Positions 12,549-38,088 of a stretch of DNA of 64,000 bases are shown here, one piece after another. This stretch comes from an uncultured Phycisphaerales bacterium (GTDB lineage: Bacteria > Planctomycetota > Phycisphaerae > Tepidisphaerales > Tepidisphaeraceae). A program made the position numbers and the translations under genes. The stretch spans positions 1 to 64,000 of the forward strand of contig CAWJPJ010000001.1 of NCBI GenBank assembly GCA_963844715.1, given 5' to 3'. The notes below the pieces were generated by a model. The model had not been told where the DNA came from, searched no databases, and saw only the letters and a program-made list of their open reading frames with translations. Every line of letters starts with the position of its first letter. Within the stretch, counting starts at the first letter, position 1.

Positions 12549-12552
12549 GGCT

Positions 12553-14929: not shown

Positions 14930-14966
14930 CGGTGGCGAATTCTAAGAATCATCGGCCAGCGCGGCA

Positions 14967-15032
14967 GCCGGAGAAAATCCGTCTTTGGGTGTAGGTGATT
15001 GCACCTAGGGGTAAATCATTTCTTGGCCCGAT
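14967..15032. promoter_or_regulatory. Bidirectional operator/promoter for hypF and PFOR (two overlapping copies of the island motif)
   Basis: Palindrome TAGGTG-ATTG-CACCTA at 14992-15007; -10-like TAGAAT (minus) and GAAATT (plus), each 22 nt past the motif end. Confidence 0.7.
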
Positions 15033-15087
15033 GGTTGAGTGGCGCGGAATCACCGAAATTAATTGTGTTGGCGAAAGGATTATTGAT

Positions 15088-18000
15088 ATGCCGTCTCCCA
15101 CACGTCAGACGATCGCACTGGAAGGGAACGAAGCGGTGGCGTCGGTGGCGCATCGCGTGAGTGAAGTCATCGCGATTTATCCGATCACGCCTTCGTCGGC
15201 GATGGGGGAGTTTGCGGATGAATGGTCTTCGCAGGGCCGGAAGAATATCTGGGGGATGGTGCCGCGGGTGGTGGAGATGCAGTCGGAAGGCGGGGCGGCG
15301 GGAGCGATACACGGGGCGCTGCAGGCGGGGGCGCTGGCGACGACGTTTACGGCATCGCAGGGGCTGCTGCTGATGGTGCCAAATCTTTACAAAATTGCCG
15401 GGGAATTGACGTCTTTTTGCATGCACGTGACGGCGCGGACGCTGGCGACGCATGCGCTTTCGATCTTTGGGGATCACTCGGATGTCATGGCGTGCCGGCA
15501 GACGGGGTTTGCGATGCTCTGCTCCAACGGCGTGCAGGAAGCGCACGATCTGGCGTGCATCGCGCACGCGGCGACGCTGGAGACTCGGGTTCCGTTCATG
15601 CACTTTTTCGACGGGTTCCGAACGTCTCATGAGATTCAGAAGTTCGAGATGCTGAGCGACGATGATCTGCGGGCGATGATCGATCCAGCGGCGGCAGCGG
15701 CGCATCGAGAGCGCGGGTTGACGCCGGACCGGCCGGTGCTGCGAGGGACGGCACAGAACCCGGATACGTTTTTCCAATCGCGCGAAGCGGGGAATCCGTT
15801 TTATCTGGCGTGCCCGGCGGCGGTGGAAAAAGTGATGCGGCGGTTCGCGGCGCTGACGGGACGAGAGTATCGGCTGTTTGAATATGTGGGCCATCCGCAC
15901 GCGGAGCGGGTGATGATCATTATGGGATCGGGTGCGGATAGCGCGCATGAGGCGGTGGATCGACTCGTGCGCGACGGGGAAAAGGTGGGGGTTCTCAAAG
16001 TGCGGCTGTATCGGCCGTTCTCTGTGGAGAGAATGCTGGAAGCGCTTCCGGTCAGCGTTCGAGCGATTGCGGTGATGGATCGGACGAAGGAGCCGGGAAG
16101 TATCGGGGAGCCGCTGTATCTGGATTGCCTGGCGGCGCTGCATGAGGGGAAGGCGGCGGGGATTTCGCGGTTTACGCAGGAACCGATTGTGATTGGGGGG
16201 CGATATGGGCTGGCTTCGCATGAATTCACGCCGGCGATGGTGAAGGGTGTCTTTGATGAATTGAAACAGGCCAGGCCGAAGCCGCATTTTACGGTGGGGA
16301 TTGTGGACGACGTGACGAAATTGTCGTTGGTTACGCCGGAGGATTTCGAAATTGAGCCGGAGGATGTGTTCCGGGCGGTATTTTTCGGGCTGGGATCGGA
16401 TGGGACGGTGGGAGCGAATAAGAATTCCATCAAGATCATCGGCGAGGAGACGGAGTTCAATACTCAGGGATATTTTGTTTACGATTCGAAAAAATCGGGG
16501 GCGATTACGATTAGTCACCTGCGGTTTGGGCCGCGGCCGATTCGCTCGGCGTATCTGATTCGCCAGGCGAATTTCGTGGCGTGCCACTCGTTCAATTTTC
16601 TGGAACGATACGATATTCTGGGATACGCCAAGGAGGGCGGGGTGCTTTTGCTTAATGCGCCTTGCGAGGCGGAGGCGGTGTGGGGGAAGTTGCCGGGCGA
16701 GGTGCAGGAGCAGATTGTTCAGAAGAAGCTGAAGGTGTTTGCGATCGACGCGTACAAGGCGGCGCGCGAGGCGGGGATGGGGCGACGGATCAACACGGTC
16801 ATGCAGACGTGTTTCTTTGCCATCAGCGGGGTGCTGCCGAGCGAGCAGGCGATTGCGCAGATTAAGAAGTCGATCGAAAAGACGTATGCGAAAAAGGGGG
16901 AAGAGGTTGTGCGAAAGAATTTTGCGGCGGTGGATGGGACGCTGACGCATTTGCATGAAGTTAAAGTTCCCAAAGAATTTGCCGCGGGCAGGGCATTGCC
17001 GCCGCTGATGCCGGTGGAGGCTCCGGATTTCGTCAAGAACGTGACGGCGATGATGCTGGCGAATCGGGGGGATTTGCTGCCGGTGAGCGCGATGCCGATC
17101 GATGGGACCTGGCCGGTGGGAACGGCGAAGTGGGAAAAGCGGAATATTGCCGCGGAGATTCCGGTTTGGGAGAAGGAACTTTGTATTCAATGCAATAAAT
17201 GTGCGTTCGTCTGCCCGCACGCGGCCATCCGCGCCAAGGTTTATCCGGCGGAGAATCTTGCCGGGCGCCGGCGGAATTTGCATCAACGGATTACAACGCG
17301 GTGGATTTGCGGGGGATGAAATATACGTTGCAGGTGGCGCCGGAAGATTGCACGGGGTGCGGAGTTTGCGTGGCGGTTTGTCCGGCGAAGGATAAGTCGA
17401 TGCCGAAGCGCAAGGCGATCAATCTTGCGCCGCAGGCGCCGCTGCGGGAGCGCGAGGCGGAGAATTTCAGATTCTTCCTGAATATTCCGGAAATCGATCG
17501 GAGCAAGGTGCGCGTGGATGTGAAAGGGTCACAGTTTTTCCAGCCGCTGTTTGAGTTTTCGGGGGCTTGCGCGGGATGCGGAGAGACGCCTTATATCAAG
17601 TTGCTGACACAATTGATGGGGGATCGGCTGCTGATCGCGAATGCGACGGGGTGTTCGTCGATTTATGGGGGCAATCTGCCGACGACGCCGTATTGCGCCA
17701 ACCACGAAGGGCGGGGGCCGGCGTGGAGCAATTCTCTGTTTGAGGACAACGCGGAATTCGGATTGGGGATGCGCTGGGGGTGGATCAACTGGCGGGGCAA
17801 GCCCGGCAGCTTCTGCGTCAACTCGAGCCGTCTCTGGATGAGGAATTCGTCGAGGAGCTTTTGAGTGCGGACCATTCCAGCGAGCAGGGGATCGCCACGC
17901 AGCGGGCGCTGGTGGTGGAACTGCGGCGGAAACTGGCGGCACTGGACGGAACGCCGGATGCCAAACGACTGGCGGCGCTGGCGGATTATCTGGTTTACAA

Positions 18001-18697
18001 GAGCGTTTGGATCGTCGGCGGGGACGGATGGGCTTACGACATCGGGTACGGGGGGCTGGATCATGTGCTGGCATCGGGGGCGGATGTGAAAGTTTTGGTG
18101 CTCGATACGGAAGTTTATTCCAACACGGGAGGTCAGCAATCCAAGTCGACGCCGATCGGCGCGGCGGCGAAGTTCGCGGCGGCGGGGAAATCCGCTCCCA
18201 AGAAAGATTTGGGATTGCTGGCGATGGCGTATGGGAATGTTTATGTGGCCCAGGTGGCTGCGGGGGCCAAGGACGTGCATACGGTCAAGGCGTTTCAGGA
18301 GGCTGCGTCGTATCCGGGGCCGAGCCTGATCATCGCTTACAGCCACTGCATTGCGCATGGGTACGATCTGGTGCTTGGGCCGGAACAACAGAAATTGGCG
18401 GTGGGGAGCGGGTATTGGCCGCTGTATCGATACGATCCGAGGCGGCGGGCCAATGGTCAGAGCCCGCTTCAGTTGGATTCCAACGCGCCGAACAATCTGT
18501 TGCCGCAGTTTATGGCCAATGAGACTCGGTTCCGGATGGTCGAGCAGAAGAATCCGGACCGCTACAAGGTTTTGATGGAGGGGGCGAAGCGGCAGGTGGC
18601 GGATCGATATTCGTTGTATCACCAGTTGGCGGAGCCTCCGGCGGGGCAGACTCCGGCGGCGGTGCCCCCGACTCCAACCGCAAAGGCGCATTTATGA
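15088..18697 (+). CDS. nifJ: Pyruvate:ferredoxin/flavodoxin oxidoreductase, homodimeric type (frameshifted)
   Basis: IYPITPSS, MQSEGGAAG, GLGSDGTVGANKN, CIQCNKCAFVCP, CTGCGVCVAVCP, GACAGCGETPY, GGDGWAYDIG. Confidence 0.98.
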
Positions 18698-19713
18698 ATC
18701 TCACTACCACCTATATTGGGCTGGAATTGGCCAATCCGCTGATCGTGGGGGCATCGCCGCTGGCGGATGATCTGGATATGGCGCGTCGACTCGAAGACGC
18801 GGGGGCGTCGGCCATTGTGATGCGGTCGTTGTTCGAGGAGCAGATCGAAGGGGAGCGGTATACGAGCGTGCAGCATATCGAGATGTACGCGGATGCGTTC
18901 GCGGAGGCGACGTCGTTTTTTCCGGGGACTTCGGATTTCGCGCTGACGCCGGAGGCGTACCTGGAGCATATCCGCCGATTGAAAAAGGCGGTGCGGATTC
19001 CGGTGATTGCGTCGTTGAATGGGACGAGCCCGACGGGATGGCTGCGCTATGCGCAATTGATCCAACAAGCGGGGGCCGATGCGCTGGAGTTGAATGTGTA
19101 TCACGTGGCGACGGATCTCAATCAGACGGGGACGGAGATCGAGCGAAATACGCTGGATGTGGTGCATCGGGTGCGCGAGGCGGTGACGTTGCCGCTGGCG
19201 GTGAAACTGTCGCCGTTTTTCACGTCGCTGCCGCATTTGGCCAGTCGGCTGAGCACCGGGGGCGTAGATGGGCTGGTGCTGTTTAATCGGTTCTATCAGC
19301 CGGATATCGATCTGGACATGCTGGATGTGGTTCCGCGGTTGCATTTGTCGGATTCGTCGGAGCTGCTGCTTCGGTTGCGGTGGCTGGCGATTTTGTCGGG
19401 GCGGTGCTCGGCGTCGCTGGCGGCCAGCGGGGGGGTGCACACGGCGATGGACGCCATCAAGGCGGTCATGACGGGGGCGCATGCGGTGCAGTTGGTTTCG
19501 GCGCTGCTGAAGCGCGGGCCGGGGCATTTGAAGAACGTTTTGACGGATTTCCGGCAATGGATGGTCGAGAACGAGTACGAATCGGTGCGACAGATGCGCG
19601 GCTCGCTGAGTTTGGCGCGGTGCCCTGATCCGGATGCGTTTGAGCGCGGAAATTACATGCGGGTGCTGAATAGCTGGCAAGAAGGCATCCGCCGCGTCCA
19701 CGATGCGAACTGA
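18694..19713 (+). CDS. Dihydroorotate dehydrogenase-like FMN protein
   Basis: 'NPLIVGASPL', 'PVIASLNG', 'ADALELN', 'VKLSPFF', 'FNRFYQPD', 'SGGVHT'; ATGA-coupled to PFOR. Confidence 0.9.
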   Translation: MNLTTTYIGLELANPLIVGASPLADDLDMARRLEDAGASAIVMRSLFEEQIEGERYTSVQHIEMYADAFAEATSFFPGTSDFALTPEAYLEHIRRLKKAVRIPVIASLNGTSPTGWLRYAQLIQQAGADALELNVYHVATDLNQTGTEIERNTLDVVHRVREAVTLPLAVKLSPFFTSLPHLASRLSTGGVDGLVLFNRFYQPDIDLDMLDVVPRLHLSDSSELLLRLRWLAILSGRCSASLAASGGVHTAMDAIKAVMTGAHAVQLVSALLKRGPGHLKNVLTDFRQWMVENEYESVRQMRGSLSLARCPDPDAFERGNYMRVLNSWQEGIRRVHDAN

Positions 19714-19737
19714 GACTGACAACTTCGGGAGCGTACT

Positions 19738-20487
19738 ATGGCAACTTCGACGAAGAACGATCGGGCGGCGTGGCTGACGGGGCCGGGGGCGAAGTGTTCG
19801 GTGATTCCGGGGGCGCTGGCGAATCCGTGGAAATTGGTTTTGCTGGGACCGCCGGGAGTGGGGAAGGGGACGCAGGCGGAACTGCTGAGCCGGGAATTGG
19901 GGGCGTGCCATCTCTCGACGGGTGACGTTTTTCGCGCTTCGAGTTCCGGCCACTGCGCGCCCAGTCCGGCCATGACGGAGGCGATCAGGTATATGGTTCA
20001 GGGGCAACTGGTTCCCGATTCCATCGTCTGGCAACTGGTGCGCGAGCGGGTTGGGTGTTTGCATTGCGGCGGCGGATTTATTCTGGACGGGTTTCCACGC
20101 ACGTTGGCGCAGGCGACGGCGTTGCAGCAGCTTTTTCAGGATGAATCGATTGCGCTAGACGGGGTGATCTATTACGAGATGCCGCTGGATGAAATTGTGG
20201 CGCGACTGAGCGGGAGGCGGACGTGCGGACGATGCGAGGCGGTTTATCACGTTACCGGTCGGCCGCCGGGGAAACCGGGGATTTGCGATAACTGCGGCGG
20301 GAATTTGATTCAGCGTGAGGACGACAAGCCGGAGGCGGTGAAAGTCCGCATGCAGGCGTATCAAAAGGGGACGGCGCCGGTGGCGCAATTTTATCGGGAA
20401 ATGGGATTGCTGGTTCCGATTGACGCGCGAGGCTCGGCCAATGAGGTTCTGGCTCGGACCGTCTTGGCGTTGAAGGCCCGCCGATAG
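19738..20487 (+). CDS. adk: Adenylate kinase with N-terminal extension and zinc LID
   Basis: GPPGVGKGTQA, LSTGDVFR, LDGFPRT, CGRC...CDNC, QREDD. Confidence 0.93.
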   Translation: MATSTKNDRAAWLTGPGAKCSVIPGALANPWKLVLLGPPGVGKGTQAELLSRELGACHLSTGDVFRASSSGHCAPSPAMTEAIRYMVQGQLVPDSIVWQLVRERVGCLHCGGGFILDGFPRTLAQATALQQLFQDESIALDGVIYYEMPLDEIVARLSGRRTCGRCEAVYHVTGRPPGKPGICDNCGGNLIQREDDKPEAVKVRMQAYQKGTAPVAQFYREMGLLVPIDARGSANEVLARTVLALKARR

Positions 20488-20493
20488 CCGGGG

Positions 20494-20564
20494 CATCGGT
20501 GAATCCACCTACGTCAAAAGCGGCAGCAGCCCCGATTCTGTAAGCGGGGCAACTGTTCGATATT
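20494..20564 (+). promoter_or_regulatory. Island operator motif plus -10 (GATATT)
   Basis: CATCGGTGAATCCACCTACG...CCCCGAT, then 22 nt, then GATATT. Confidence 0.7.
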
Positions 20565-20635
20565 ACGCGTGTTGCGATTGCTGGCCGACTCGATGCCGTT
20601 GGGTTGGTCCGCGTTTTTGAACAGGAGGCAGCCCA

Positions 20636-21147
20636 ATGACTCAATCCATCTCGACGATCGATCTTCCGCGGCCCGCGTCGAAGCTTACGCCGGCACGGGC
20701 ATTGCGCCTGGCTTGGTTTTGCTGGCTGGGGCTGCTGGCGATTCCGTTTTTATTGATCTTTTGGTTGATTTGGCATTTGGCGCCGGGGCGGATCACGGAG
20801 CCGCAGACGGGGTGGGAGAAATGGTTCATTGGAGCGATGGGTTATCTTGCGCGCTGGCTGTGCCCGCGTCGCTGTTCTGGCGCGGGCACGTCTTTAAACC
20901 TTATTGGGCGGGCCAGGCCGTGGCGCCGGGGGATTATCTCCGGGGCATGGCGACGGTCTGGACAGCTTTGGCGGTTGGAGGAATTGTCAGCTTGTCGGGA
21001 TGCGTGGCGACGGAATCGCTGGCTCCAAATGTGATTCCATCGATGCTGTCGTTGATTCTGTTTTTAACGATGTGGCCCGGAGGCCGGGCGATGGTCCGGA
21101 GGGTTGGGAATGCGGAGGATCCCGGCCTCTATGTGGAGCCAAATTGA
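20636..21147 (+). CDS. Hypothetical multi-pass membrane protein (frameshifted)
   Basis: GGAGG RBS and about four hydrophobic segments across two frames. Confidence 0.65.
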
Positions 21148-21202
21148 ATCGGCGGCGGACGGAACGCTTCGCGTGCGGACTCATCCCCGTACCCGTGGGC
21201 GA

Positions 21203-23973
21203 TCACGCACGTCCGCCGCCGTTCATTTTTAGTTCCGCAAGTACCGTCGACTCGTCCAGATTTCTCGTGAGTTTGAATCCCAGCTTTTCGGCGACGCGTT
21301 GCATTTCCTTATTTTCCGCCATGATGGTGGCGAGGAGCCGCTCGATCTTTTCATTTCTGGCAATTTGCAACAATAATGTGAGGAGCTGAGTTCCCAGGCC
21401 CTGGTTTTGCCAGACGTCGGTGATAACGATGGCGAACTCGGCTTCCTTTCCGCCGGGGAGTTTACTGAGACGGCCGATCCCCAAGATGAATCGTTCGCCG
21501 GTTTCGGGACGTCGGCTTTCGGCGACCAGGGCCAGCTCGCGATCGTAATCGTTGAAACAGACGCGAATGAGGCGCTCGTGGGCGATTCGCTGGCTAAGGT
21601 GGATCGGGTGGAAATAGCGGAAGATGACGCTGCGGTCGGAGAGTTCCTGGTGAAAATGGACCAGAAGGGGCTCGTCTTCGGGGCGGATGGGCCGGATGAT
21701 GACGGGCATTTTGTCGTTCAACGACCACTGACTGACATATTGGGTCGGATAGGGGCGGATGGCCGAGCGGGGCAAGTCAGCTTCTTTTTTTTCGGCGGGC
21801 CATAGAACGGCGCGGGCATCGGCGGCGATGATCCGGTCGGAGGTGACCAGGAGGGGATTGATTTCGATCTCCTTCACCCAGGGTTGCTCGATTACCAATT
21901 GGCTGAAAGCGCACCAGGATTTGAGCCAGCAGGTCGATGTCGACGGGCTTTCGGCCGCGGACGCCTTTGAGGGCGTTGAAGATTCGGGTCTGCTCCATCA
22001 TTCTGCGGGCGAGGGTGGCATTGAGCGGGGGTAGGCCGAGGGCGCGATCCTTGAGAACTTCGACGAGCTGACCGCCCAATCCGAAGAGGAGGACGGGCCC
22101 GAATTGCGAATCGGGGCTGCTTCCGATGATCAGTTCGTAGCCGTTGCGCGCGTCGATCATGGGCTGAACGGTGACGCCCTGGAAATGCTGCGGGCCGGCG
22201 AGGCGGGTCACCGATTCGCGGATTTCGTCGAAGGCTCGGGCAATCCTCGGCATGTCGGCCAGATTGAGCTTTACACCGCCGACGTCGGTCTTGTGGGTGA
22301 TCGTGTGCGAAAAGAGTTTCAGAGCGACGGGGTATCCGGCGGCGTCGGCGGCTTTGACGGCCTCGGCGGGCGGTGGCTGACCGTGACGGTCTCGACGACC
22401 GGGATTCCGTAGGCTGCCAGAAGCTTCTTGGATTGAAATTCGTCCAGTAGGGTGCTGCCGGATGCTCTGGCGGTTCCGATGATGTTTTCCGCGGATGTTC
22501 GATCGACTTCTTTTCGGTTGTCCTCTCCCAATGTCGGCGTTTCATACAGACCGCGGAGATTGTAGGAATAGCGCCACATGTAGGTGAAGGCGCGGGCGGC
22601 GGCGTCGGGGTAGTCGAAAGGCGGGGATGCCGGCGCGGCTGAGGATCTCGTGGCCGGCGGCGACCTGGGCTCCGCCCATCCAACTTGCCAGCAGCGGTTT
22701 GCCTTCCATTTTCGCCAGTGCCTTGACAGCCTCGGCGGTCTGGGTGGGATCGGTCATGTCCTGCGGGGTGAGGACGACGAGTACGCCGTCGTTGGCGGAA
22801 TCGTTAGCTACCGCTTTGATTGCCTTGGCGAACCGCTCGGGGGCGGCGTCGCCGAGGACGTCGATTGGATTATTGTGGCTCCATTGCGGCGGGAGGAACG
22901 AGTTTAGCGTTTGCAGAAGTCCGGCGGACATGCGCCGCGAGTTCGCCGCCGCTGGCGAGAAGGGCATCGGTCGCCAGGACGCCGGGACCGCCGGCGTTGG
23001 TGACGATCGCCAGGCGGCGGCCGGCGGGGCGGGGCTGCTTGGCGAGGACATCGGCCATGGAGAACAAATCGGAGATGTGATCGACGCGCAGCACGCCACA
23101 GCGGCGGAAGGCGGCGTCGAGGACTTCGTCGCTGCCGGTGAGGGAGCCGGTATGCGAGGCGGCGGCTTTGGCGGCGGCGTCGCGATCGGCCGGCTTTGAT
23201 GACGATGATCGGCTTATTCAGCGAGACTTCGCGCGCGGCGGAGAGGAAGGCGCGCGCGTCGCCGATCGATTCCATGTAGATCAGGATGCTGCGGGTGCGC
23301 GGAATCGTCGCCGAAATAGTCGATCAGATCGCCCCAGTTCACGTCGAGCATCGAGCCGGTGGAGACGAAGGCGCTGAAGCCGACGGCTTCGCTGAGGCTC
23401 CAGTCGAGAATCGCGGTGCAGAGGGCGCCGCTTTGGCTGATGAAGGCGACGTTGCCGGGCTTGGCGATGCCTTTGGCGAAGGTCGCGTTCAAGCCGGTGA
23501 GTGGATTCATGACGCCCAGGCAGTTGGGGCCGATGATGCGCATCCCGCCGCGGCGGGCTTGTTCGAGGACGCGGTTTTCCAATTCGAGGCCGGGTTGGCC
23601 GAGTTCGCGGAAACCGGCGGAGATGACGATGGCGCCCTTTACGCGGGCGTCGGCGCACTGACTGATCACCTGCGGGACGCTGGCGGCGGGTGTAACCACA
23701 ACGGCAAGGTCAATCGGCTCGGGAATGGCGGCGATGCTGGGATAGGCTTTTATCCCCAGGACGCTGGCCGCGTTTGGGGTTGACGGGGAAGACCGTGCCG
23801 CCGAAGGGGCTGGTAACGAGATTCCAGAGGACGGTGCGGCCGACGCTTCCCTTGGTTTCGGTGGCGCCGATGACGGCAATGTTTCGTGGGGCAAAGATCG
23901 CTTCCAGGGGCCGGGGCGATCCTTGGCCGGGTTCGGGGGAATTCACTTCGGTGGTTGGTTTTACATCTTGCAT
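21203..23973 (-). CDS. Acetate-CoA ligase (ADP-forming-like) fused to a GNAT acetyltransferase (frameshifted)
   Basis: CoA-binding 'IAVIGAT..GSVG', GPNCLG, SQSGAL, ASHTGS, TNAGGPG, ATP-grasp 'HKTDVGGV', 'EIEINPL', C-terminal GNAT 'WQNQGLG'. Confidence 0.93.
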
Positions 23974-24008
23974 AGTGCATACCATTAAATCATGCGGCAA
24001 GGTTTTCG

Positions 24009-24079
24009 CATCAGCGAATTCACCTACATTAAAAACGGGGTCAATGCCGATCCCGTGGTTTCGGCCAAGTGCAGATAAT
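24009..24079 (+). promoter_or_regulatory. Island operator motif plus -10 (GATAAT)
   Basis: CATCAGCGAATTCACCTACA...TGCCGAT, then 22 nt, then GATAAT. Confidence 0.72.
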
Positions 24080-24125
24080 AATGGATGGGTGGGGAGGCGC
24101 CTGGAGAGTTGAATGGAGGTCGGCC

Positions 24126-25058
24126 ATGAAACTTCTCATTGCATACGACGGCTCGGAATGCTCCGATGCGGCGATTGTGGACCTGCGTCGGGCGGGTTTG
24201 CCGGCTGTGGCGGAGGCGCGGGTTTTGTCGGTGGCGGATACTTCGCCGGCGCTGGCGACGGTTCCCTTTCAGGCCTGGGAGGCGGGGGCGGACGCTTATC
24301 TTCCTGAGATCATCGAAAGAGAGGCGTTGGAAGGGGATCAGCCGCGAGAGGCTCGTGCGTACGCCGAGCAGGCGGCGGAGCTTTTGCACGCCGATTTTCC
24401 GGGTTGGCATATCAGTACGGAAGCGTGGGTTGATGATGCGGCGGCGGCGATTGTCCGGGAGACCCACGCGTGGAAGCCGGACATTATCGTGGTGGGTTGT
24501 CATGGGCGGACGGGGATCAGCCGCTTTGTGCTGGGGAGTGTTTCGCAGCATGTGACGCATCAGGTGGCCTGCTCGGTGCGGATTGGGCGACACCACCTGC
24601 ATTCGCAGGAGAGATCGATTCGCCTGCTGATTGGGGTGGATGGATCGGACAACGCCAGGACGGCGGTGAAGGCGGTGGCGGCGAGGAACTGGCCGGCGGG
24701 GACGGAAGCGCGTGTGGTGGGGGTGCTGGATTCGCGGATTCAGGTGGCGGCGGCGACGACACTGGAGGGGACGATTCCGGTCATATTCGAGGAAGAATCG
24801 CGACGCCGGTTGTCGGGCGCGGTTCATGAAGCGGTGCAAGAATTGAAAAAGTCCGGGCTGGTGGCGACTTTGCAAGTGCTGGGGGGCAAGCCGAGTGACG
24901 TGCTGCTGACGGAAGCTGACAAGTGGGCGGCGGATTGCGTATTCCTTGGGGCGAGGCGGCTGAGCGGGTTGGAGCGAATCCTGCTGGGCAGCGTTTCGTC
25001 GTGCGTGGCGGCACATGCGCATTGCTCGGTGGAGATCGTCCGGGCGAATTTGGAATAG
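24126..25058 (+). CDS. Tandem-domain universal stress protein
   Basis: Two USP domains: 'LLIAYDGS...GCHGRTG...LGSVS' and 'LLIGVDGS...[15 protein letters not shown]'. Confidence 0.95.
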
Positions 25059-25123
25059 GTCATGCGGGCTCGTTTTATGTCCTGAGCCCTTGCCAGTTCG
25101 CTAAATAAGCCACTTTCAACCTG

Positions 25124-25194
25124 CATCGGCGAAATCCCCTACGCGAAGAATAGGGCCGACTCTGATTCTCCGGCCTGCCTGGTTGTCCGATGCT
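25124..25194 (+). promoter_or_regulatory. Island operator motif plus -10 (GATGCT)
   Basis: CATCGGCGAAATCCCCTACG...CTCTGAT, then 22 nt, then GATGCT. Confidence 0.72.
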
Positions 25195-25238
25195 TTTCAA
25201 TGTCTTTGGAACACCGTTGTCATGAAAGGTATCGGACT

Positions 25239-27803
<2,565 letters not shown>

Positions 27804-27820
<17 letters not shown>

Positions 27821-28484
27821 GTCGTGCTTCGATGGCGTACTTTAGCAGCTCGTTGCTGCTCTTCAGATTGAGCTTCTGCTTGATGTGTTCCTTGTGGGCC
27901 TCGACCGTCTTGGTGCTGAGAAAAAGTTTGTCGGCAATGGCGCGGACGCTCTGACCTTCGCCGATAAGCCGGAAGATCTCCAGTTCGCGGTCCGTTAGCC
28001 TCGCCAGCGGCGGAAGATCCGCCGAAGAACGGTGGCCGGAAAGGTTTTGTAGCAGTTTGGCGGACATGGTCGTGCTGAGATAAACCTGTCCCTTCGCGAC
28101 CGTCCGGATCGCATTCATGACGGTTTCCTGCAGCTCCTGTTTCATCACGTAACCCGCGGGCCCGCCTTCAGCGCCCGCTCGGCATAAAGCGACTCATCGT
28201 GCATCGAGACAACCAGGATGGGCAGCTCCTTCCAGCGATCGCGGATTTGTTTACACAATTCCAGCCCATCGCCGCCCCGGAGGGTCAGATCGACGACGGC
28301 CACATCCGCCTTGGCGGTCGCCAGCAGTCGGATCGCATCCGGCAGGCGATTCGGCTTCGCCGCACATCATCATGTCCGGCTGATCGTCAATCAACCGCCC
28401 CATCCCCTGGCGCAGCACCGGATGGTCATCCACGAGGAATATGCGGTGGCGATTGCTCGCAGGTTTAGTCGGCGTTTTTGCCAT
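27804..28484 (-). CDS. NarL/FixJ-family response regulator (frameshifted)
   Basis: 'IFLVDDHPVLRQG' receiver; LuxR HTH 'LTDRELEIFRLIGEG...IADKLFLSTKTVEAH'. Confidence 0.93.
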
Positions 28485-30274
28485 TTGCTTCGCCTCGAAG
28501 AATGCCCTCGGCTTTGCGCAGAGCACAGTCTACTCGGGTTCCACCAGTCGGGAGTCTCAAAACCGAAAGCGTCGCGCCGATCAACGCGGCGCGATATCGC
28601 ATGGTTTGCAGTCCCATCCCTTTCTTTTCCGGCAGCACCTCGGGGAAACCGATGCCGTCGTCTCGCACCGACACCGTGATTGTATCGCCGGCGCGGATCA
28701 GAACAATCCGGATGTGCTTGGCCTTTCCGTGCTTGATCGCGTTGTTCACGGCCTCCTGAGTGATCCGATAAAGATGCGTGCCGACAGCTTCGTCGGAGAG
28801 CAAAACCGGCTCCTCACACTTGAACGTACAGGCGATTCGGAACGTGTTTTCGACCGTCAATGCCAATTCCCGCAGGGCGGACATCAGTCCCGTCGCCGAA
28901 AGATCGACCGGATGCAGCCCATGCGCCATGCCGCGCGCCTGGGCGATGGCCTCGGAAACGAGCCGGGCGATCTGGCGGGCGTCGGCGGATTCGGCGACCG
29001 TCTTTTTCGTCAGCCGCAGCTCCAGTGACTTGCTCAGGAACCCGATGCCGGCCAATTGCTGACCGAGGCCGTCGTGCAAATCCTGCCCGATGCGGCGCTG
29101 TTCTCGATCGCTGATTTCGAGGATTTGCCTCTCGAGGCGCTTGCGGTCGGTCAGATCGCGGACGATCCCCGTGAACAGGCGCCGTTGGCCGATCAGCACT
29201 TCGCTGACAGCCAGATCCATGGGAAACGTCGATCCGTTCTTGCGTTTGCCGACGACTTCCCGGCCGATCCCGATGATCTTGGCCATGCCCGTGCGAAGAT
29301 AACTGTGAAGATACTCATCGTGTTCGGAACGGTAAGGATCGGGCATGAGCACGTTGATGTTGCGGCCCAGAACGTCAGTGGCGGAGTATCCGAATAGTCG
29401 CTCGGCGGCGGGATTGAACGAGTCGATCATGCCACGTTCGTCAATGGTGATCACGCTATCCACCATGGTCGTCAAAATTGCCGCGGTTTTCGTTGCCGTT
29501 TCCTGCAAGGCGGATTCGGCGTTTCGACTTTGAAATATCGCGGGTGATCGTCGAAATGCCGACCAGTTCACCGGAGGCATCGTGCACCGGTCCGGCTGTG
29601 AGCGCCACGGGAATCGGGGTCTTGTCTTTTCGAATGCGCACGCGTTTCGAATCGAGTTCACGACCCCCGCGCCGAACCGCGGAGAGAACGCGGGCGGTTT
29701 CGCCCATTCGATCGGCGGGGACCAACAGCGAGGCCGTTCGGCCCTTCACGTCTTCAATGGAATATCCGTAAATCCGCTCGGCGGTGCGGTTCCAGCTGAC
29801 GATCACGCCGTCCAATGTCATGTCCATGATCGCGTCCTGGGAGTATTCGACGATGGACGCCAGCCGGATCATCTCCGCTTGCGAACGCTTGGCGGCAGTG
29901 ATTTCCTGCGCGGCGGCGACGACGAAGACGCTTCCATCGGATTCAGTCCGGACCGGCTGGGCATAATCGCGAATCCATTTGAGATGGCCATCCGCGGTAA
30001 TCAGGCGGTATTCCCGAACGTCGCCATGGCCCGCAAGCAAAACGGCGGGGCGGGTCTTGAGCAGCGGGCGATCCTTGGGATAGATCAGCTCGTCCCAGCC
30101 GCGTTTTGGCAGGGTGCCGGCCGGATATCCGGTGATCTGAGGAAACGGGCCGGCGACCCAATCGAAGGTGATTTTGCCGCGTTTGGTCAAGTGAAATGCG
30201 TAAATGAAGTCAACTGCGTCCGGAGGGGTCACGGCTTTTGGCTTGCGGCCCATCGCGGCAGTTGTAATCGCCAC
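28465..30274 (-). CDS. Cytoplasmic triple-PAS histidine kinase (HisKA_3) with a FixL-like PAS domain (one frameshift)
   Basis: Three PAS/PAC domains, H-box 'QDLHDGLGQQL', 'QEAVNNAIKH', 'DDGIGF', 'GMGL'. Confidence 0.92.
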
Positions 30275-30328
30275 TTGGCAGGCAGATCAAGAATCGGACG
30301 CCGGGGCCCGTCCGGGCCGTGTATCCCC

Positions 30329-30399
30329 CATCAGCAAATCCCCCTACGCCCAAAGAGGGGCAAGCTCCGATTTTGCGGCGGCACATAAGATCCGATTAT
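30329..30399 (+). promoter_or_regulatory. Island operator motif plus -10 (GATTAT)
   Basis: CATCAGCAAATCCCCCTACG...CTCCGAT, then 22 nt, then GATTAT. Confidence 0.72.
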
Positions 30400-30409
30400 T
30401 TGGGTGGCC

Positions 30410-31294
30410 ATGACGAAGCTGCGAGACAAGCCGGCTCAGACAGCGTCCCCCAGGACGCCAGGCCCGATCCCGCTCTACGTGCTTTCCGATTCCACGGGAA
30501 ACCTGGCTCGCCATATGGTGACGAGTTTCCTCACACAGTTTCCGGCCGGGTCGTTTCAAGTGGTCACTCGCCCCTTCATCGGCGAGCCGGATCGCATCGT
30601 CGAGTCCCTCGATGCGGTTGCCGCCCTTCCGGGGATCGTATTTCACGCGGTCGTATCGCCTTTGCTGAAGAAGCAAATCACCGCGCGATGCATTGAACTC
30701 GAAATCCCTTGCTGGGATTTGACGGGCTCGGCCGTGGAGTTTCTCGCCAGGGCCGCCAGCCTGGTCGCGAAATCCGATCCCCAAACGCTGCATCGCGTGG
30801 ACAGCGCCTACTGCGGGCGCATCAACGCCTTGACGTTCGCGCTGGAACACGACGACGGCCTTGGCCTGGACAGTCTGAACCACGCGGACCTCGTACTCGC
30901 TGGCGTCTCCCGCACCGGCAAGACCCCGACCAGCATGTTTCTGGCGATGCAGGGATTTCGGGTGGCGAATGTATCGCTGGCCATCGCCGTTGCCCCGCCC
31001 AAGGAATTGGCCGCCTTGAATCCAAAAAAAATCGTCGGCTTGGTGATCGATCCCGGTCAACTTGCGGAGATCCGCACTCGCCGACAGACCGCGTGGCGAA
31101 TGACTCAATCCGGCTACAACGAACCCCGCGAAGTCGCCAGGGAAATTGCCTGGAGCCGGCAGGTCTTCGCGAAATTGCACTGCACGGTTCTGGATGTAAC
31201 GGACCAGGCGATCGAAGAGACCGCCGCGAGAATCGTGGACATGCTCGGCTTGCCCGAACCATCGAATCATGCGATGGCGCAGGAGTTGTCATGA
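30410..31294 (+). CDS. PEP synthase/PPDK regulatory kinase-pyrophosphorylase (DUF299)
   Basis: 'LSDSTG', 'FALEHDDG', 'GVSRTGKTPTS', 'IEETA'. Confidence 0.93.
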   Translation: MTKLRDKPAQTASPRTPGPIPLYVLSDSTGNLARHMVTSFLTQFPAGSFQVVTRPFIGEPDRIVESLDAVAALPGIVFHAVVSPLLKKQITARCIELEIPCWDLTGSAVEFLARAASLVAKSDPQTLHRVDSAYCGRINALTFALEHDDGLGLDSLNHADLVLAGVSRTGKTPTSMFLAMQGFRVANVSLAIAVAPPKELAALNPKKIVGLVIDPGQLAEIRTRRQTAWRMTQSGYNEPREVAREIAWSRQVFAKLHCTVLDVTDQAIEETAARIVDMLGLPEPSNHAMAQELS

Positions 31295-31307
31295 GCGCTT
31301 ACACCAG

Positions 31308-31809
31308 TCACTTTCGCGCACCGACCGATTCACTGAGCACATCGGTGACGAACTGGCTCTCCAGTTCGACCGGCTGCAGGGAAGCCTTCAGTTCCAGCGC
31401 CGCCGCGATCGTGCCGCACAGCATCGAAAGCAGGCCCAGGACGAATAGCGGAATCGCAAGGTACATCGCCTCGGGCACCACGGCCGAGAGGCCGAGCATC
31501 AGGCTGCACCCGATCAGCAACCCAATGGTAAGCAGCAGAAACAGCAGAGTCAGTCGAATGAGTTTCGCGCGGTCGTCTTACATGCTCTGTTTGGACTTCC
31601 AGGTGCGCCAGCAATTCTCGACCGTGTACGGTCGCGGATTTTTTCAACCGTTCGTGCTCCGTGAGTCGCTCGCGCTGAAACGCCCGCAGGCGCGATACGA
31701 TCGCGGCCATGCGATTGTAGAAGGCCAGAGCCAACAGCCCGCAGGCGGAAATGATGACAACAGGAACGACCGCGGAACTGACGATTCGTGAAAGGTCGGA
31801 GGTCGGCAT
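31308..31809 (-). CDS. DUF2721-like membrane protein (frameshifted)
   Basis: 'VVPVVIISACGLLALAFYNRMAAIVSRLR'; C-terminal TM ending 'ELKASL'. Confidence 0.7.
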
Positions 31810-31905
31810 GACAAGGCTCCTTAATCGAACATCTTCCGTGCGGATTTGAAGCCGTCAACATGCGATCGACTACATTGGAATACCAGCCATTTAGAGGAGA
31901 CAGCA

Positions 31906-33718
31906 ATGACAACGATGACAGAAATTCCGGTCCGCAGGGAAACCACGGTAGAGCTGCCGCCGGCGGTTCAGCGATGGATCGACGAATGCATCAACCTATG
32001 CCAGCCGGACGAGATTTACGTTTGCAACGGCAGTTCGCGAGCGAAGGGAACTGATTGAAGAGGGCGTCCGCGAAGGCGTTTTCATCGCGCTCAACCAGCA
32101 GAAGCTTCCCGGCTGCTACCTGCATCGCAGCAACCCCAACGACGTCGCCCGCACCGAGCAATGCACGTTCATCTGCACGCCCAGCCAGGACATGGCCGGC
32201 CCGACCAACAACTGGATGGAGCCCAAAGCCGCGTATACGCAAAGCTCAGCGGCCTGTTCGACGGGTGCATGCAGCGGGCGAACGATGTACGTCGTCCCGT
32301 TCGTCATGGGGCCGATCGGCTCGCCGCTGGCGAAGGTCGGCGTGCAGATGACCGATTCGCATCTACGTCGCCGTCAGCATGGGCATCATGACCGCGCATG
32401 GGCGAGGTCGCCTGGAAGCAGCTCGGCGACAGCGACGGACTTCACGCGCTGCCTGCACAGCCTCGGCGATGTGCAACCCCGAGCGCCGCTACATCTGCCA
32501 TTTCCCGCTGGACAACACGATCTGGAGCTTCGGCTGCGGCTACGGCGGCAATGCGCTTCTCGGCAAGAAATGCCTGGCCCTGCGCATCGCCAGCTTCCTC
32601 GGCCAGCAGCAGGGATGGATGGCCGAGCACATGCTGCATCTAGCGGCGTCAGCGCACGGCGGCGAAAAAACCTATGTCGCCGCCGCCTTTCCCAGCGCCT
32701 GCGGCAAGACCAATTTCGCCATGCTGATCCCGCCGGAAAAATATCGCGAGGCGGGCTGGAAAATCACCACCGTCGGCGACGACATCGTCTGGATGTGGGT
32801 CGACGAAAAGACCGGCCGCCTGCGCGCGATCAATCCCGAGGCCGGCTACTTCGGCGTCGTGCCCGGCACCAACGAAGAGACCAATCCCAACGCCATGGCG
32901 TGCATGTGCCACGACACGATCTACACCAATGTCGCGCTGCTGCCCGACGGCGATGTCTGGTGGGAAGGCAAGACCGACGCAGCCGCCGGCCGAGTGCATC
33001 GACTGGACGGGCAAGCCCTGGACGCCCGACGCAAGTCCGGCCGCAAGGCCGCCCATCCCAACAGCCGCTTCACCGCGCCGATGACCAACAACCCCGCGCT
33101 CGACCCGTCCGCGGATGATCCCGACGGCGTGCAGATCTCCGCGCATCATCTTCGGCGGCCGACGCAGCCAGAACCATCCCGCTGGTCTTCCAGGCATTCA
33201 ACTGGATGCACGGCGTCTACGTCGGCGCGACGCTCGGCAGCGAAACCACCGCCGCCGCCACGCGGCCAGGTCGGCGTCGTCCGCCGCGATCCGATGGCGA
33301 TGCTCCCGTTCATTGGCTACAACATCCGCGACTACCTCGTCCACTGGTTCCGCATGCGCAAGAAGATGACCGACTGCCCGCGCATCTTCCACGTCAATTG
33401 GTTCCGCAAGGACGACAACGGCAAATTCCTCTGGCCCGGCTTCGGCGAAAACATGCGCGTGCTCGAATGGATCATCGACCGCTGCCACGGCCGCGCCTAC
33501 GCCGTCGAAACGCCGCTCGGCTGGATGCCGCGAGCCGAGGACATCGACCTGGAAGGCCTGAACATCATCCCGAGCCGACTTCGAGCCGATCCAGACGGTC
33601 GATCTCGAAGCGTTCAAGGCCGAAATTCTCGAGCCAGGAAGAGCTGTTCCTGAAGCTGGCCGGCGATTTGCCCAAGGAAATGATCTTCCAGAGGGAGTTG
33701 CTGATCAGCCGGTTGTAA
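31906..33718 (+). CDS. pckG: Phosphoenolpyruvate carboxykinase (GTP) (frameshifted)
   Basis: [64 protein letters not shown]. Confidence 0.97.
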
Positions 33719-33763
33719 GTGGGCGATGGCTGCGCGTCACTCATTATCAAGCAGCGATTGGAT

Positions 33764-34433
33764 ATGAACAGTCAGATCGCACGGGCGGGCCGCGCGCGTT
33801 CGACGCGCGCAGGCATGACCGCGATCAGCCTGGTCGGCCCCGCCGGATCGGGAAAGACTTCGATTGATCGAGGTCGGTTGCTCGCCCGCCTTAATCCGAC
33901 GCGTTCGCACCGCCGTGATCGTCGGCAACCTCGCCGCCGAGCGGCAAGTGGAACGCATTTCCAGCCGCGGCTGCCCGCCATTCCGCTCGTGACTGACAAT
34001 CTCGCCGCGATCAACGTTCGCGATGCGATCAGTCAATTAAATCTGAATGAAATAGATCTTCTATTGATTGAATCCGAAGGTAACGCACACAGTCCGGTGG
34101 AATTCGATCTGGGGCATCATTTTCGCGCCTAGCGTTTTCAGCGTGGCCGGCGGCGAGGATAGGGCGACGGAATATCCCTTCCTCATCGCCAGATCCGACG
34201 TGGTGCTCCTGACCAAAATCGATCTGCTTCCCTCCGTGAAGTTCGATTTCAAAGTGTTTAATCAGGATGTGACGCGCGTGAAGGCGAGGATGCCGATTAT
34301 CCAACTGTCTCTTCAATCCAATCAGGGGATTGGCCAGTGGGTTCAATGGGTCGAATCGCATTTGTCGCCACGCATCAAGCAGCGGCGACTTCCGGAAACG
34401 GCCGACCCGTTCATCAGGATTCCCAACCAATAG
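33764..34433 (+). CDS. HypB-like G3E GTPase 1, lacking metal-binding Cys (frameshifted)
   Basis: GPAGSGKT, 'DLLLIESEGN...EFDLG', 'GED...YP', TKIDLLP. Confidence 0.82.
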
Positions 34434-34440
34434 GTGCACC

Positions 34441-35124
34441 ATGGCGGAAGGTACTCGCGAACATGTCGATGTCACCGTCGCGGCAGAATTAAGCATTGGC
34501 CGGCCGCCCCCTGCCGCGCTGATTCGCAGGGCTTTGGTGCAATCGCGGGTATTGGGAATTCGCATCATCGGGCATCCCGGATCCGGCAAAACGGAATTGA
34601 TCGAAGCGACGTTGAAGCGGCTGGTGGCGCCCAGCGCGTGGCGGTCATCGTCGTAAATCCCGCTTCCGGTCGTGATGCCGAGCGGCTACAAAAATATTGC
34701 GGCCACGTCGCCCAAATCGATGCCGCTACTCCGGATGCTGCGACGATCTGGCGCGCCATGGGCGAATTGAGGCTCGAGGATTTCGACACGTTGTTAATCG
34801 AAGCGGCCGGAGGATTGGCCGATTTGCATGATCTGGGCCAGGACGCAACCGTCGCCGTTTTCGCCGTCAGCGGCGGCGACGACAAAGCAGCGGAATATCA
34901 CGCTCTACTGAAATGCTTCGGCGATCCTCCTGACAAAAATCGATCTCCGTCCCTTGGTGAAATTCGACGGGCAAGTCTTCCGCAATGATATTCGAGCTGT
35001 CAATTCATCGGCGGAAATCCATGAAACCTCGGCGATGACCGGATCGGGCCTAATCGATTGGCTCGACTGGATGGACAGGACACCGCGACAAGATTCAAAG
35101 CAGGTTACGCGGCGACCCGCATGA
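34441..35124 (+). CDS. HypB-like G3E GTPase 2, lacking metal-binding Cys (frameshifted)
   Basis: GHPGSGKTELIEAT, 'DAERL', 'HDLGQD', 'GGDDKAAEY', TKIDL, 'SAMTGSG'. Confidence 0.8.
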
Positions 35125-35704
35125 GTCACCATCTGACGAATTCATCGGATAGCGGCGGGCGAGGAACAAACGAGCGAAAGCGGCGACCGTGAATAAATCG
35201 CTTCCAATTGGATGGATGAAGATGGGATTCCGGCGGGGTTTGCTCGGAATGTCAACCCGTCCCACGGCCCGCCGATCACCCCGTACTGCCTACCGTTCGA
35301 TCTTGTGAGGTCTGTTGCCCCTTGTTCATCCAGTTGCCGCGGTTAGCGCGATCCTGGAGCGGCACCGCGCGAAGCCGCCGACCGGGTATGAGGAATTCGT
35401 TATCAAACTGCTTTGCGAATCGTCGGAGGAGACCCCGAAGAACGATCGGCATTTGTCCGATCATCGCGCGGAGCCGGGTCCTTTCCTGGACTACGCGACG
35501 GACGCGCTGGCGATTTTGGAGCGGGTTGCCGCATTGTTCGATAAGGCGGAGATTGCAACTCCCGGACACGATTGGCGCGAGATATCGCGTTGGGACAGAT
35601 GAGCGTCCTTGATTCGAAAGCCGATGCGGGTCAGCCATCTCTCGAAAAACCATGAGCGAGGCAGCGGTTTTGAATAACCTGCGCGATTTCGGCCGATCGT
35701 TGCT

Positions 35705-35775
35705 CGTCAGTAAATTCCCCTATGCGATTTGGCGGGCGAAACCCGATTCTTTTTACGCTGCCGGATTCCCATACT
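35705..35775 (+). promoter_or_regulatory. Island operator motif plus -10 (CATACT), upstream of the Rieske operon
   Basis: CGTCAGTAAATTCCCCTATG...ACCCGAT, then 22 nt, then CATACT. Confidence 0.65.
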
Positions 35776-36098: not shown

Positions 36099-36635
36099 AT
36101 GTCAGAACCAGTTCCCGATCGTCGGCACTTTCTCTCCGGTTGCACGGCCGGTCTCATGGCCCTTCTTGGTGGCTTGATTTTCGCGCCGGCGGTGGCATTC
36201 GTGACCACTCCTTTATGGCGCCGACGTGGGGCCAGCGCGGTTGGCGATGATTTCTCCGATGCTGGCGCGGTTGATTCAATCCCCGTCGGAAGATGGACGC
36301 TGCTTTCCATTGAGATCGTACGACAAGATGGTTGGGCCAAGACCCGGCAGGCTCGATCCGTCTGGGTTCTTGTTAACGGTACCGGTCCTGACGACGTCAA
36401 AGTTCTCTCGCCAATCTGTCCCCATCTGGGCTGTCCGATCGCGTGGTTGGCGGCGGAATCAGAATTCCTCTGTCCCTGTCACGGCAGCATCTTTAGTAAG
36501 GCTGGAAGTTGCGTCAGCGGGCCGTCCCCGCGAGCAATGGACGCCTTGGAGTCCCAGATTAGCCATGGACACCTGTGGGTGCGTTGGCAGGACTTCCGCA
36601 CCGGCGAGCATGAACGAATCACCGTGCAACTGTAA
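36099..36635 (+). CDS. Rieske [2Fe-2S] subunit of a bc complex
   Basis: Tat-like DRRHFL plus TM; CPHLGC and CPCHGS; 'GPSPRAMD'. Confidence 0.95.
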   Translation: MSEPVPDRRHFLSGCTAGLMALLGGLIFAPAVAFVTTPLWRRRGASAVGDDFSDAGAVDSIPVGRWTLLSIEIVRQDGWAKTRQARSVWVLVNGTGPDDVKVLSPICPHLGCPIAWLAAESEFLCPCHGSIFSKAGSCVSGPSPRAMDALESQISHGHLWVRWQDFRTGEHERITVQL

Positions 36636-36673
36636 AGACGGCCGGGAAAGGCCTCGCAATAGAAAGCGCCGCA

Positions 36674-38088
36674 ATGCCGAATACTTCCCAGAAGGAGACA
36701 AAGACGCTTTCCGGGACGGGTTTCCTCGGTTCCCGCACGGGTTGGCGGGAATTGCGAAAGCGCATGCTGCTTGAGCCAGTCAAGGGCGGATCGCGATGGA
36801 CCGCCGCGTTCGGCAGTCTGCTGTTGTTCATGTTCGTCCTTCAAGTCGTGACCGGCGTCCTGTTGACCACCTGTTACGCACCGTCTGTCGGCACGGCATG
36901 GGAGAGCGTGAAATATATCCAGGAGGAAAGCGCCCCTGGGCTGGTTCATCCGTGGCATGCACCACTGGGGTTCCAGCGCGATGGTCATCCTGTTGCTGTT
37001 CCACCTGGTGCAGGTGTATATTTGGGGCGCCTATAAGCGTCCTCGCGAATTGACGTGGATGACGGGTGTGCTTTTGCTGTTTGCGACGCTCGGCGCTCGC
37101 GTTCACCGGCTATTTGTTGCCGTGGGATGAAAAGGCCTATTGGGCGAGCAAGGTCGGGCTGGGGATCGTCGGCACCGTTCCGGTCATCGGTTATCGCCTC
37201 AGACTCCTCCTGCAAGGGGGTCCGGACATGGGCAACCTCACCCTGACCCGGTTCTTCGCTTTGCATGGTTTCGTTCTCCCCGGCACAGTCATCGCGTTGG
37301 TTGTTGTACACCTGTACTTCTTCCGCTTGCACGGTGTCACCACGGCTTGGTGGGAAGATGAAGAACTGCTCGAAAGCAAAACCGAACCGTTCTGGCCCGG
37401 ACAGGTTTGGAAAGATGGCGTCGTCGCTCTGGGCTTGCTGCTTTTGCTCACAACATGGGTATTTATCCATCCCGCTCCACTCGGGGCCGTGGCCGATCCA
37501 TCCAAGGCTTACGAGGCGCGGCCCGAGTGGTACTTCATGTTTCTGTTTCAGATCCTGAGATACTTTCACGGTCCCTATGAGGTCATCGGGACCTTCGTTC
37601 TCCCGTCGCTTTTCTTTTGCATCCTGTTCTTTTGGCCTCTGCTGGACCGTACTTCCTCTCGCGACCCGCGGCATAGGCCATTCGCCATGACCGTGCTCGG
37701 TGTTGGCGTCGTCGGTTTGGTTGGATTGACGGTTTTCGCGATAGCAGACGACACACGGATGACCAAGCCTGAAATCGCCCTGCAGCCGCAGGTGTCGGCC
37801 GCACCTTTGCAAAAACTGGACGTCTCTGGCCTCTACGCCACGAATTGTCTGGCATGTCACGCCGTGGATGGGACGGGGAACGCGTTGCGGGTCGCGCTGC
37901 CCACGATCCCTAACTTCACAAATGCTGCCTGGCAGAAAACCCAATCGGACGAGGAATTCAGCATCCGCATCCATGACGGCAAAGTTCCAATGATGCCTGC
38001 TTTCAAGGACAAGTTCACTTCGGACCAGATTCACGCGCTAGTGGATTACGTGCGGGCGTTCGCGGGTAAGGAGCCCGCGTCAAAGTGA
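36674..38088 (+). CDS. Cytochrome b fused to a C-terminal c-type cytochrome (frameshifted)
   Basis: 'IRGMHHWGSS...HLVQ', 'GYLLPW', 'RFFALH...H', PEWY, C-terminal CLACH with 'MPAF'. Confidence 0.93.

Follow-up and report, generated by a model that had tools for sequence, protein, structure and literature searches.

Here we describe a recurrent operator-promoter element in a 64,000-nucleotide stretch of DNA (hereafter the window) from an uncultured Phycisphaerales bacterium of the family Tepidisphaeraceae (assembly GCA_963844715.1, contig CAWJPJ010000001.1, positions 1 to 64,000). The motif in the window is genuine, specific and conserved. From sequence comparison we consider it likely that this is the operator-promoter of a low-oxygen regulon, activated by the oxygen-sensing two-component pair encoded on the same genomic island, namely a NarL-type response regulator and a sensor kinase with a FixL-type PAS domain. 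A preliminary description of this DNA had already proposed activator-dependent promoters read by the island's own NarL-type regulator, and we retain that proposal because the motif co-occurs with close homologues of the regulator, the promoters have a poor -35 element and the core of the operator matches the proven FixJ site. The outcome is a testable map of operator, promoter geometry, sensor, regulator and targets for a possible switch to fermentation and H2 turnover at low oxygen, in an abundant and mostly uncultured group of planctomycetes.

Operator and promoter geometry

The seven strings listed in the preliminary description, with their hexamers, are all present at the positions given, and six of them match the consensus T[CA]RG-N8-CCTA-N20-CYGAT. 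The seventh (15009, minus strand) has CCGGC in place of CYGAT and is the opposite strand of the palindromic box (14991-15008) of the site at 14990; given the shared palindrome and the missing CYGAT, we count six full copies and one divergent partial site, the TAGAAT of which (14944-14939) lies 9 nt upstream of the hypF start (14929). The consensus has six matches in the window, all on the forward strand, and none in 100 dinucleotide shuffles, which sets the motif apart from random sequence, and the spacing controls CCTA-N19-CYGAT and CCTA-N21-CYGAT have one match each. In a leave-one-out test against 9.1 million positions, five of the six sites rank within the best 7-11 positions. The site at 14990 fails this test, with 1799 positions scoring equally well, and is accepted nonetheless because orthologous sites in relatives confirm it.

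All copies are intergenic, as originally described, although not every one still points into its gene, since the site at 35705 has lost its usual target. In relatives this is a TAT-type 4Fe-4S protein, which has no close match in this genome, and the next clear gene here is a Rieske gene, 324 nt downstream. The genes at 36099-40226 (Rieske, cytochrome b/c, cytochrome c, porin-like and small haem-type genes) are inserted behind this site and have no counterpart in the second island of this genome, on contig C3.

The element was first read as a 43-bp operator. The motif is real, but it is better described as a strong 18-bp box followed by a weak second box. The strong box (columns 2-19) is an imperfect palindrome, RTMRG-N8-CCTAY, followed by an A-rich linker (columns 24-26) and then by CYGAT (columns 39-43), a third strong half-site that forms the right half of the second box. 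Only CYGAT and a central GGG are kept in this second box; the left half, at 26/27, is a weak one whose register could be N7 or N8. A pyrimidine run occupies the place of the -35 element and the -10 hexamer, GATAAT, falls at columns 66-71; the right half of the weak box is better read as overlapping the -35. If the hexamer is taken as -12 to -7, the inferred box centres lie at about -67.5 and -43.

The hexamer was assessed with a matrix built from the window alone, its columns being outside the model, at 32 non-redundant held-out sites; one of these, the L118 match (score 23, with neither CYGAT nor hexamer), was later dropped as chance. At these sites the conserved bases were C65 (24 of 32), G66 (24), A67 (30), T68 (24), A69 (25) and T71 (28), with A(-11) and T(-7) kept at a fixed distance. 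Among 37 sites, nAnnnT stands 22 nt after CYGAT in 34 and at any other gap from 15 to 30 in at most six. The preliminary description had given this distance as exactly 22 nt in every copy; 22 is the rule, but five of 58 non-redundant sites have 21 or 23. When the box is left out and CYGAT-N22-GATAnT alone is sought across the genome, there is no excess at 22. A good -35 (TTGAC or TTGCC) is present at only one of the 37 sites, and a generic sigma-70 scan gave 3 matches against 4.2 expected, none at the operator sites. The starts of hypF and of several genes for the phosphoenolpyruvate (PEP) synthase regulatory kinase-pyrophosphorylase (PSRP) and PEP carboxykinase (PEPCK) lie 9-11 nt past the hexamer and lack a Shine-Dalgarno match, which fits messages that would be nearly leaderless. 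The promoter at 30329 is divergent from the sensor kinase gene. The kinase gene itself has a TACAAC 7 nt before its start (30251-30269, minus strand), kept in the C3 copy, which is likely a leaderless promoter outside the geometry of the motif.

The two-component pair, its islands and its targets

A search of the whole genome and of relatives confines the sites here to two islands and one partial site, and shows that they recur in relatives. When the six window sites serve as the matrix, contig C3 yields another three full sites and a divergent partial one before scores fall to background, and a matrix of 37 sites gives 11 strong matches in the 4.55 Mb genome, all in the two islands. The partial site (G000:C6:1250318, minus strand) has a perfect box, a second element shifted by one base and the hexamer TAGAGT; it lies close to a third hydrogenase-like region at a contig end, and the adjoining sequence resembles a hydrogenase region of G145, a genome of another genus. 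Two pattern matches, C5:237038 and C8:764174, do not score with the matrix and were treated as chance.

Of 141 genomes of the order, 13 contain the strict pattern and none its reversed control. A regulator of at least 66% identity is present in 13 genomes, 11 of which have the strict pattern; in the other two, matrix sites lie on the same contig as the regulator. G050 and G126, the last two of the pattern genomes, encode a 57% identical regulator with a FixL-type kinase within 12 kb on the same contig. With the window-only matrix, too, sites are found beside close regulators. A quick tree of 91 regulators places the 19 loci with the motif in two clades, both well supported (6 changes, as against 17.6 when shuffled). 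No non-shadow gene family other than the regulator is common to all 16 island groups, a result that is partly circular. The strict pattern is absent from 400 other genomes of the phylum (one of them of the window's family). A relaxed pattern is found in 21 of 401 genomes of the class, compared with one for the control. Some of the relaxed matches outside the family look real, having a 7-nt box centre, and one stands before the same acyl-CoA ligase; another is 2.5 kb from a 47% identical regulator, and others are in long open frames. This variant with a 7-nt centre (ATAGG-N7-CCTAT type) is also seen beside more distant regulators (L039:10974, L067:5980, L067:6370, L078:10711 and L062:4752). A scan of viruses returned two loci, both of one AT-rich sequence, which we took as chance.

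The protein at 27804-28484 is indeed a NarL-type regulator, as described earlier, but the window frame reads through only with two frame changes and, being broken, is unsuitable as a protein as it stands. Most island genes carry frame breaks, which are therefore probably assembly errors, and intact paralogues of regulator (P0001) and kinase (P0002) are encoded on C3. The closest homologues of the regulator are in records labelled Tepidisphaeraceae or Phycisphaerales, and its best PDB matches are DevR and NarL. It scores higher with NarL/UvrY-type models than with the FixJ model (NF006900, 63 bits against a cut-off of 255) and reaches no NCBIfam equivalog cut-off; the kinase scores 172 bits with the FixL equivalog NF041777, the cut-off of which is 850. 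The third PAS domain of the kinase is 53% identical to that of Sinorhizobium meliloti FixL and, when aligned to the Bradyrhizobium and S. meliloti proteins (BjFixL, SmFixL), keeps the proximal His, the Ile-Ile pair, the distal Arg, the Leu and the Val, among the key haem-PAS residues as named in the accessible part of PMC10765370. Haem binding by this domain is putative. No GAF domain was found in P0002.

Two further regulator-like genes were seen in the genome. One is an orphan third copy (L005:14202-14966, on G000:C8), 76% identical and with the same recognition helix, which adjoins a gene for a CLC-type channel; no kinase was seen next to it, and the 20 kb examined contained no motif. The other (G000:C1:140596-141240), a NarL-type match of 41% identity, is interrupted by three in-frame TGA stops.

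Targets were also collected by a motif-first scan of metagenome contigs, which gave 50 stretches with 46 distinct sites, several being the same sequences as in the genomes. Thirty of the 46 stand before the same target genes, namely PSRP (9), a small Cys-rich protein (5), PFOR (5), the TAT-type 4Fe-4S protein (4), pyrophosphatase (4), an unnamed gene (2) and hypB (1). One further site precedes feoA and one nikR, seven are ambiguous or cut off, and seven, in loci with a GC content of at most 43%, have no link to targets and were taken as chance. In two genomes (G050 and G001) cydA lies behind a site. A set of this kind fits low-oxygen needs, and the targets (PFOR, hyp genes, PEPCK, H+-pyrophosphatase, universal stress protein (USP), cydA, feoA and nikR) point to low oxygen. 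No CRP/FNR gene lies downstream of any site examined, and the one CRP-type helix-turn-helix (HTH) over the cut-off in this genome is on C8, away from all sites. The small Cys-rich protein (75-79 amino acids, with CxxC...H/C motifs; for example L055:5132-5359, minus strand) has homologues in seven island groups and is nearly always encoded directly behind a motif site; it matches no Pfam family, and its ESM Atlas matches are all unnamed clusters. The specificity of the motif is sufficient to place such unnamed genes in the low-oxygen response, the candidates being this protein, a cytidylate-kinase-like protein, a YbaK-like protein and a membrane protein.

The second island (C3, 55-98 kb) is paralogous to that of the window, at 70-79% nucleotide identity, and carries a Hox hydrogenase and cytochrome bd together with the intact kinase-regulator pair. 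Over about 55 kb (G000:C3:48591-103457 and G145:C4:1893352-1955743) it is 99.8% identical to DNA of another genus, while the C3 flank outside 48.6-103 kb matches G145 at about 70%. Another 7.5 kb in the G145 copy holds three further motif sites, and a tRNA-Ser gene adjoins the end. The near-identity may mean that the island moves between genera and that operators and cargo travel along with sensor and regulator, the alternative being a chimeric contig.

Features of the window are given in Table 1. At about 10,866 the left part of its island breaks off, and hypE abruptly joins DNA of 66-77% GC (1-10866) with P450, SfLAP and heavily broken frames, probably a chimeric contig end from another organism. 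In the mobile end a BrnT-type toxin gene is followed by a small open reading frame (45192-45912). Elsewhere in the genome about 24 tRNA genes are arrayed in 3.4 kb (G000:C6:952626-955991).

Table 1. Operator sites and island genes of the window
Feature	Position	Strand	Details
Site 1	14990..15060	+	Palindromic box 14991-15008, CCGAT 15028-15032, GAAATT 15055-15060; into PFOR operon; orthologous sites
Divergent partial site	14939..15009	-	Shares box of site 1, no CYGAT; TAGAAT 14944-14939
Site 2	20494..20564	+	Box 20495-20512, CCGAT 20532-20536, GATATT 20559-20564; before unnamed membrane protein
Site 3	24009..24079	+	Box 24010-24027, CCGAT 24047-24051, GATAAT 24074-24079; before universal stress protein
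Site 4	25124..25194	+	Box 25125-25142, CTGAT 25162-25166, GATGCT 25189-25194; before membrane pyrophosphatase
Site 5	30329..30399	+	Box 30330-30347, CCGAT 30367-30371, GATTAT 30394-30399; before PSRP
Site 6	35705..35775	+	Box 35706-35723, CCGAT 35743-35747, CATACT 35770-35775; usual target missing
hypF, hypD, cut-off hypE (hydrogenase maturation)	10868..14929	-	
PFOR (nifJ type), DHOD-like flavoprotein PRK07565, adenylate kinase	15088..20487	+	
Unnamed membrane protein	20636..21147	+	Homologues in G140 and G139 carry same motif upstream
Acetate-CoA ligase family / GNAT fusion protein	21203..23973	-	No site points into gene here; one does in G234
Universal stress protein	24126..25058	+	Two Usp domains
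Membrane H+/Na+ pyrophosphatase	25239..27751	+	Several frame breaks
NarL/LuxR-type response regulator (receiver + GerE)	27804..28484	-	Intact paralogue P0001, contig C3
Soluble sensor kinase, PAS_3-PAS-haem-PAS(FixL type)-HisKA_3-HATPase	28465..30253	-	One frame break; intact paralogue P0002
PEP synthase / PPDK regulatory kinase-pyrophosphorylase (PSRP)	30410..31294	+	
PEP carboxykinase (GTP), two HypB-like GTPases	31906..35150	+	
Rieske protein, cytochrome b/c, cytochrome c	36099..38608	+	
Mobile-element end of island	42037..47480		DUF3363 relaxase region, integrase remnant, tRNA-Met 47408-47480 (-)

Proposed mechanism and its alternatives

We propose, from what is known of the protein families, that loss of O2 from the FixL-type haem would lead the HisKA_3 kinase to phosphorylate the NarL-type regulator. 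One regulator dimer on the strong box would then recruit a second dimer to the weak box over the -35, and this second dimer would contact RNA polymerase and turn on promoters that are otherwise silent owing to their poor -35 and the non-consensus G at -12. Such action would resemble that of FixJ at fixK, albeit from a strong box about one helical turn farther upstream, and would control many operons directly, as DosR does. The predicted output is fermentative and microaerobic metabolism, through PFOR, hydrogenase maturation, Hox hydrogenase, PEPCK and PSRP, membrane pyrophosphatase, USP, cytochrome bd and the control of Fe and Ni uptake.

Several observations weigh against this activation of low-oxygen promoters by the island pair. 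A third clade of 14 FixL-PAS/NarL pairs, with a near-identical recognition helix, has no site in flanks of 5-20 kb, which limits any claim that the helix alone defines the motif, and three clade members, L188-L190, are without a full site. None of five genomes with relaxed matches gave a FixL-type PAS match (a search that had no positive control), and the site is therefore not tied to the oxygen sensor everywhere. Because of kinship among the genomes and the mobility of the island, the counts given above overstate independence. The arginine reported to stabilise inhibition by O2 (R200 in S. meliloti, R206 in Bradyrhizobium) is replaced by Asn in P0002 and by Ser in the window kinase. The box centres are about 24.5 bp apart and not at the in-phase 21 bp of DevR. 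Among the fixK promoters compared below, the Phenylobacterium site comes no higher than fourth in its locus, and no clear hexamer was picked by the -10 model in any of the three. Lastly, the one metatranscriptome run (word share 0.06, contigs only), in which 552 of 716 pieces were less than 90% alike, matched only homologues from other organisms.

The strongest alternative keeps the activator but has the promoters read by an alternative sigma factor, an RpoS-like group-2 protein preferring YC-GATAAT, with CYGAT serving partly as a sigma contact. The housekeeping promoters of this genome (TTGAC-16/17-TAnAAT) have T at -12, whereas among the 58 non-redundant sites those with CYGAT (n=50) have G in 40 and T in one, and those without it (n=8) have T in seven; C stands at -13 in 29 of 37 sites. 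The group-2 sigma also has Lys at the place of an RpoD Thr in region 2.4, a position which we take to read -12. Set against this, the eight sites lacking CYGAT consist of the C6 site and seven hypF orthologues, two of them from near-identical islands, and the covariation of G and T thus comes down to two events in two promoter groups. Genome-wide, GAnA[AC]T is not strand-enriched before genes (425 sense, 432 antisense) while TAnA[AC]T is (315 against 174), and a weak RpoD -10 explains the data without a second sigma factor. The G at -12 may reflect another sigma factor, though we give this reading a fairly low probability. The gene in question lies directly after rpsA (G000:C7:805720; L182:5548-6407).

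Of similarly modest standing is a bolder account, in which a chimeric sensor (FixL haem-PAS on a HisKA_3 core) and a NarL-type regulator would have arrived independently at a FixJ operator, on a self-contained, mobile anoxia-survival island of soil and peat planctomycetes with a dedicated RpoS-like sigma reading GATAAT. If so, the activator half-site and the -12 base would co-vary as one recognition unit.

It is unlikely that the regulator represses, or that it responds mainly to another signal (CO, NO, redox state or ligands of the kinase's extra PAS domains), with TCGAT/CCGAT at columns 64-68 as a third half-site over the -10. Three reverse half-sites do recur with a period of 24-25 bp, the kinase has two additional PAS domains and the R200-equivalent arginine is lost. 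Against this, column 64 is divided between C (18 of 37) and T (16 of 37) while the matching base of the true half-sites is almost invariant, there is no conserved left half, and the promoters have no -35 that would call for repression. Somewhat more doubtful again is a site read by a regulator encoded elsewhere, the island pair being a passenger. The genome does have the C8 orphan with the same helix, one Rex and one CRP/FNR-type HTH, and the window regulator is frame-broken, yet the distribution of the motif follows the island pair, no site lies near the C8 paralogue, and in the 141 genomes searched strict-pattern sites are absent where Rex or CRP occur without the pair. To our knowledge the motif has no Rex box, and it is without the FnrN/FixK consensus as given in the accessible part of PMC4999443. 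Cross-talk among the three regulator paralogues is possible.

Flagellar sigma-28 promoters, a structured RNA or a dispersed repeat or recombination site are very improbable, for although the -10 core CGATAA resembles a sigma-28 element before a flagellin gene of this genome, TAAA occurs in none of 37 sites and G before CCGATA in four, only spaced bases are conserved, no fold is common to the six sites (z-scores -1.95 to 0.75), and an Rfam search of 10-48 kb found nothing but the tRNA.

Comparison with known systems

The proposed activation by the island pair invites comparison with FixLJ of Sinorhizobium, Bradyrhizobium and Caulobacter, members of another phylum, the planctomycete system being carried on mobile islands. 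According to the accessible part of PMC4999443, the S. meliloti FixJ site is TAAGTAATTTCCCTTA, with a CSNAATWT element at -33 and two protected regions, fixK is the only conserved FixJ target and the FixJ consensus is unsettled, a question on which our 58 aligned sites of a related box bear. A 16-column matrix derived from the planctomycete sites alone gives the published S. meliloti site 18.2 bits and places it at the top of 69,972 positions in 35 kb of pSymA; only 14 of the 9.1 million positions in this genome attain that score, and with the box matrix the site upstream of Mesorhizobium fixK is likewise first in its locus. Planctomycete boxes are up to 14/16 identical to the published site (mean 10.4), and 22 of 37 sites match CSNAATWT at 6-7 of 8 positions, with a spacing 10-11 bp longer. 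A second element, CCGA(A)TTT, is found close to the -35 in both systems; the start of the CCGAATTT-like element is at columns 28-30 in the three fixK promoters, compared with 39 here. Further likenesses are a LuxR/GerE regulator with TVExH[RK] in its recognition helix and a haem-PAS with proximal His, distal Arg and an Ile-Ile/Leu/Val pocket. In contrast, the planctomycete kinase core is HisKA_3 where that of Mesorhizobium FixL is HisKA, the regulator is only 27% identical to FixJ, and the sites stand directly before many metabolic operons and not before fixK. Judged by these comparisons, the pair are not FixLJ orthologues, and the likeness of the boxes may reflect either convergence or old LuxR-family inheritance through the TVExH[RK] helix.

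NarL/NarP and NreC share the receiver and GerE architecture and a HisKA_3 kinase, although their sites have other spacing. The DosR/DevR system of mycobacteria is of the same HisKA_3/NarL-type class. Its sensors, DosS and DosT, use GAF, unlike the haem-PAS found here. DevR binds two 18-bp boxes, a primary one at -63.5 and a secondary one at -42.5, in which G5 and C7 are essential, as described in the accessible part of PMC3177182; the strong and weak tandem boxes here are placed similarly and G5 is invariant, but position 7 is G or A, and the recognition helix differs. The likeness extends to cargo (USP, fermentative hydrogenase and enzymes of the PEP node), and in an obligate aerobe DosR is reported to control a fermentative hydrogenase and PEP synthase (bioRxiv 2023.09.11.557286, seen in part).

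In mostly open-access literature we found no description of this operator, nor of any regulon in this planctomycete group; the accessible parts of PMC8510549 and PMC9083452 do not describe the motif, the latter merely mentioning fixL in a Phycisphaerae bin. The earlier suggestion that the motif might be undescribed does not hold as to kind, since it is a relative of the FixJ box and of the fixK promoter layout. The specific operator-promoter appears to be new, whereas its kind, a FixJ-type box, is already known. As far as sequence allows us to judge, the system is FixJ-like at the DNA and DosR-like as a regulon, and a member of neither.

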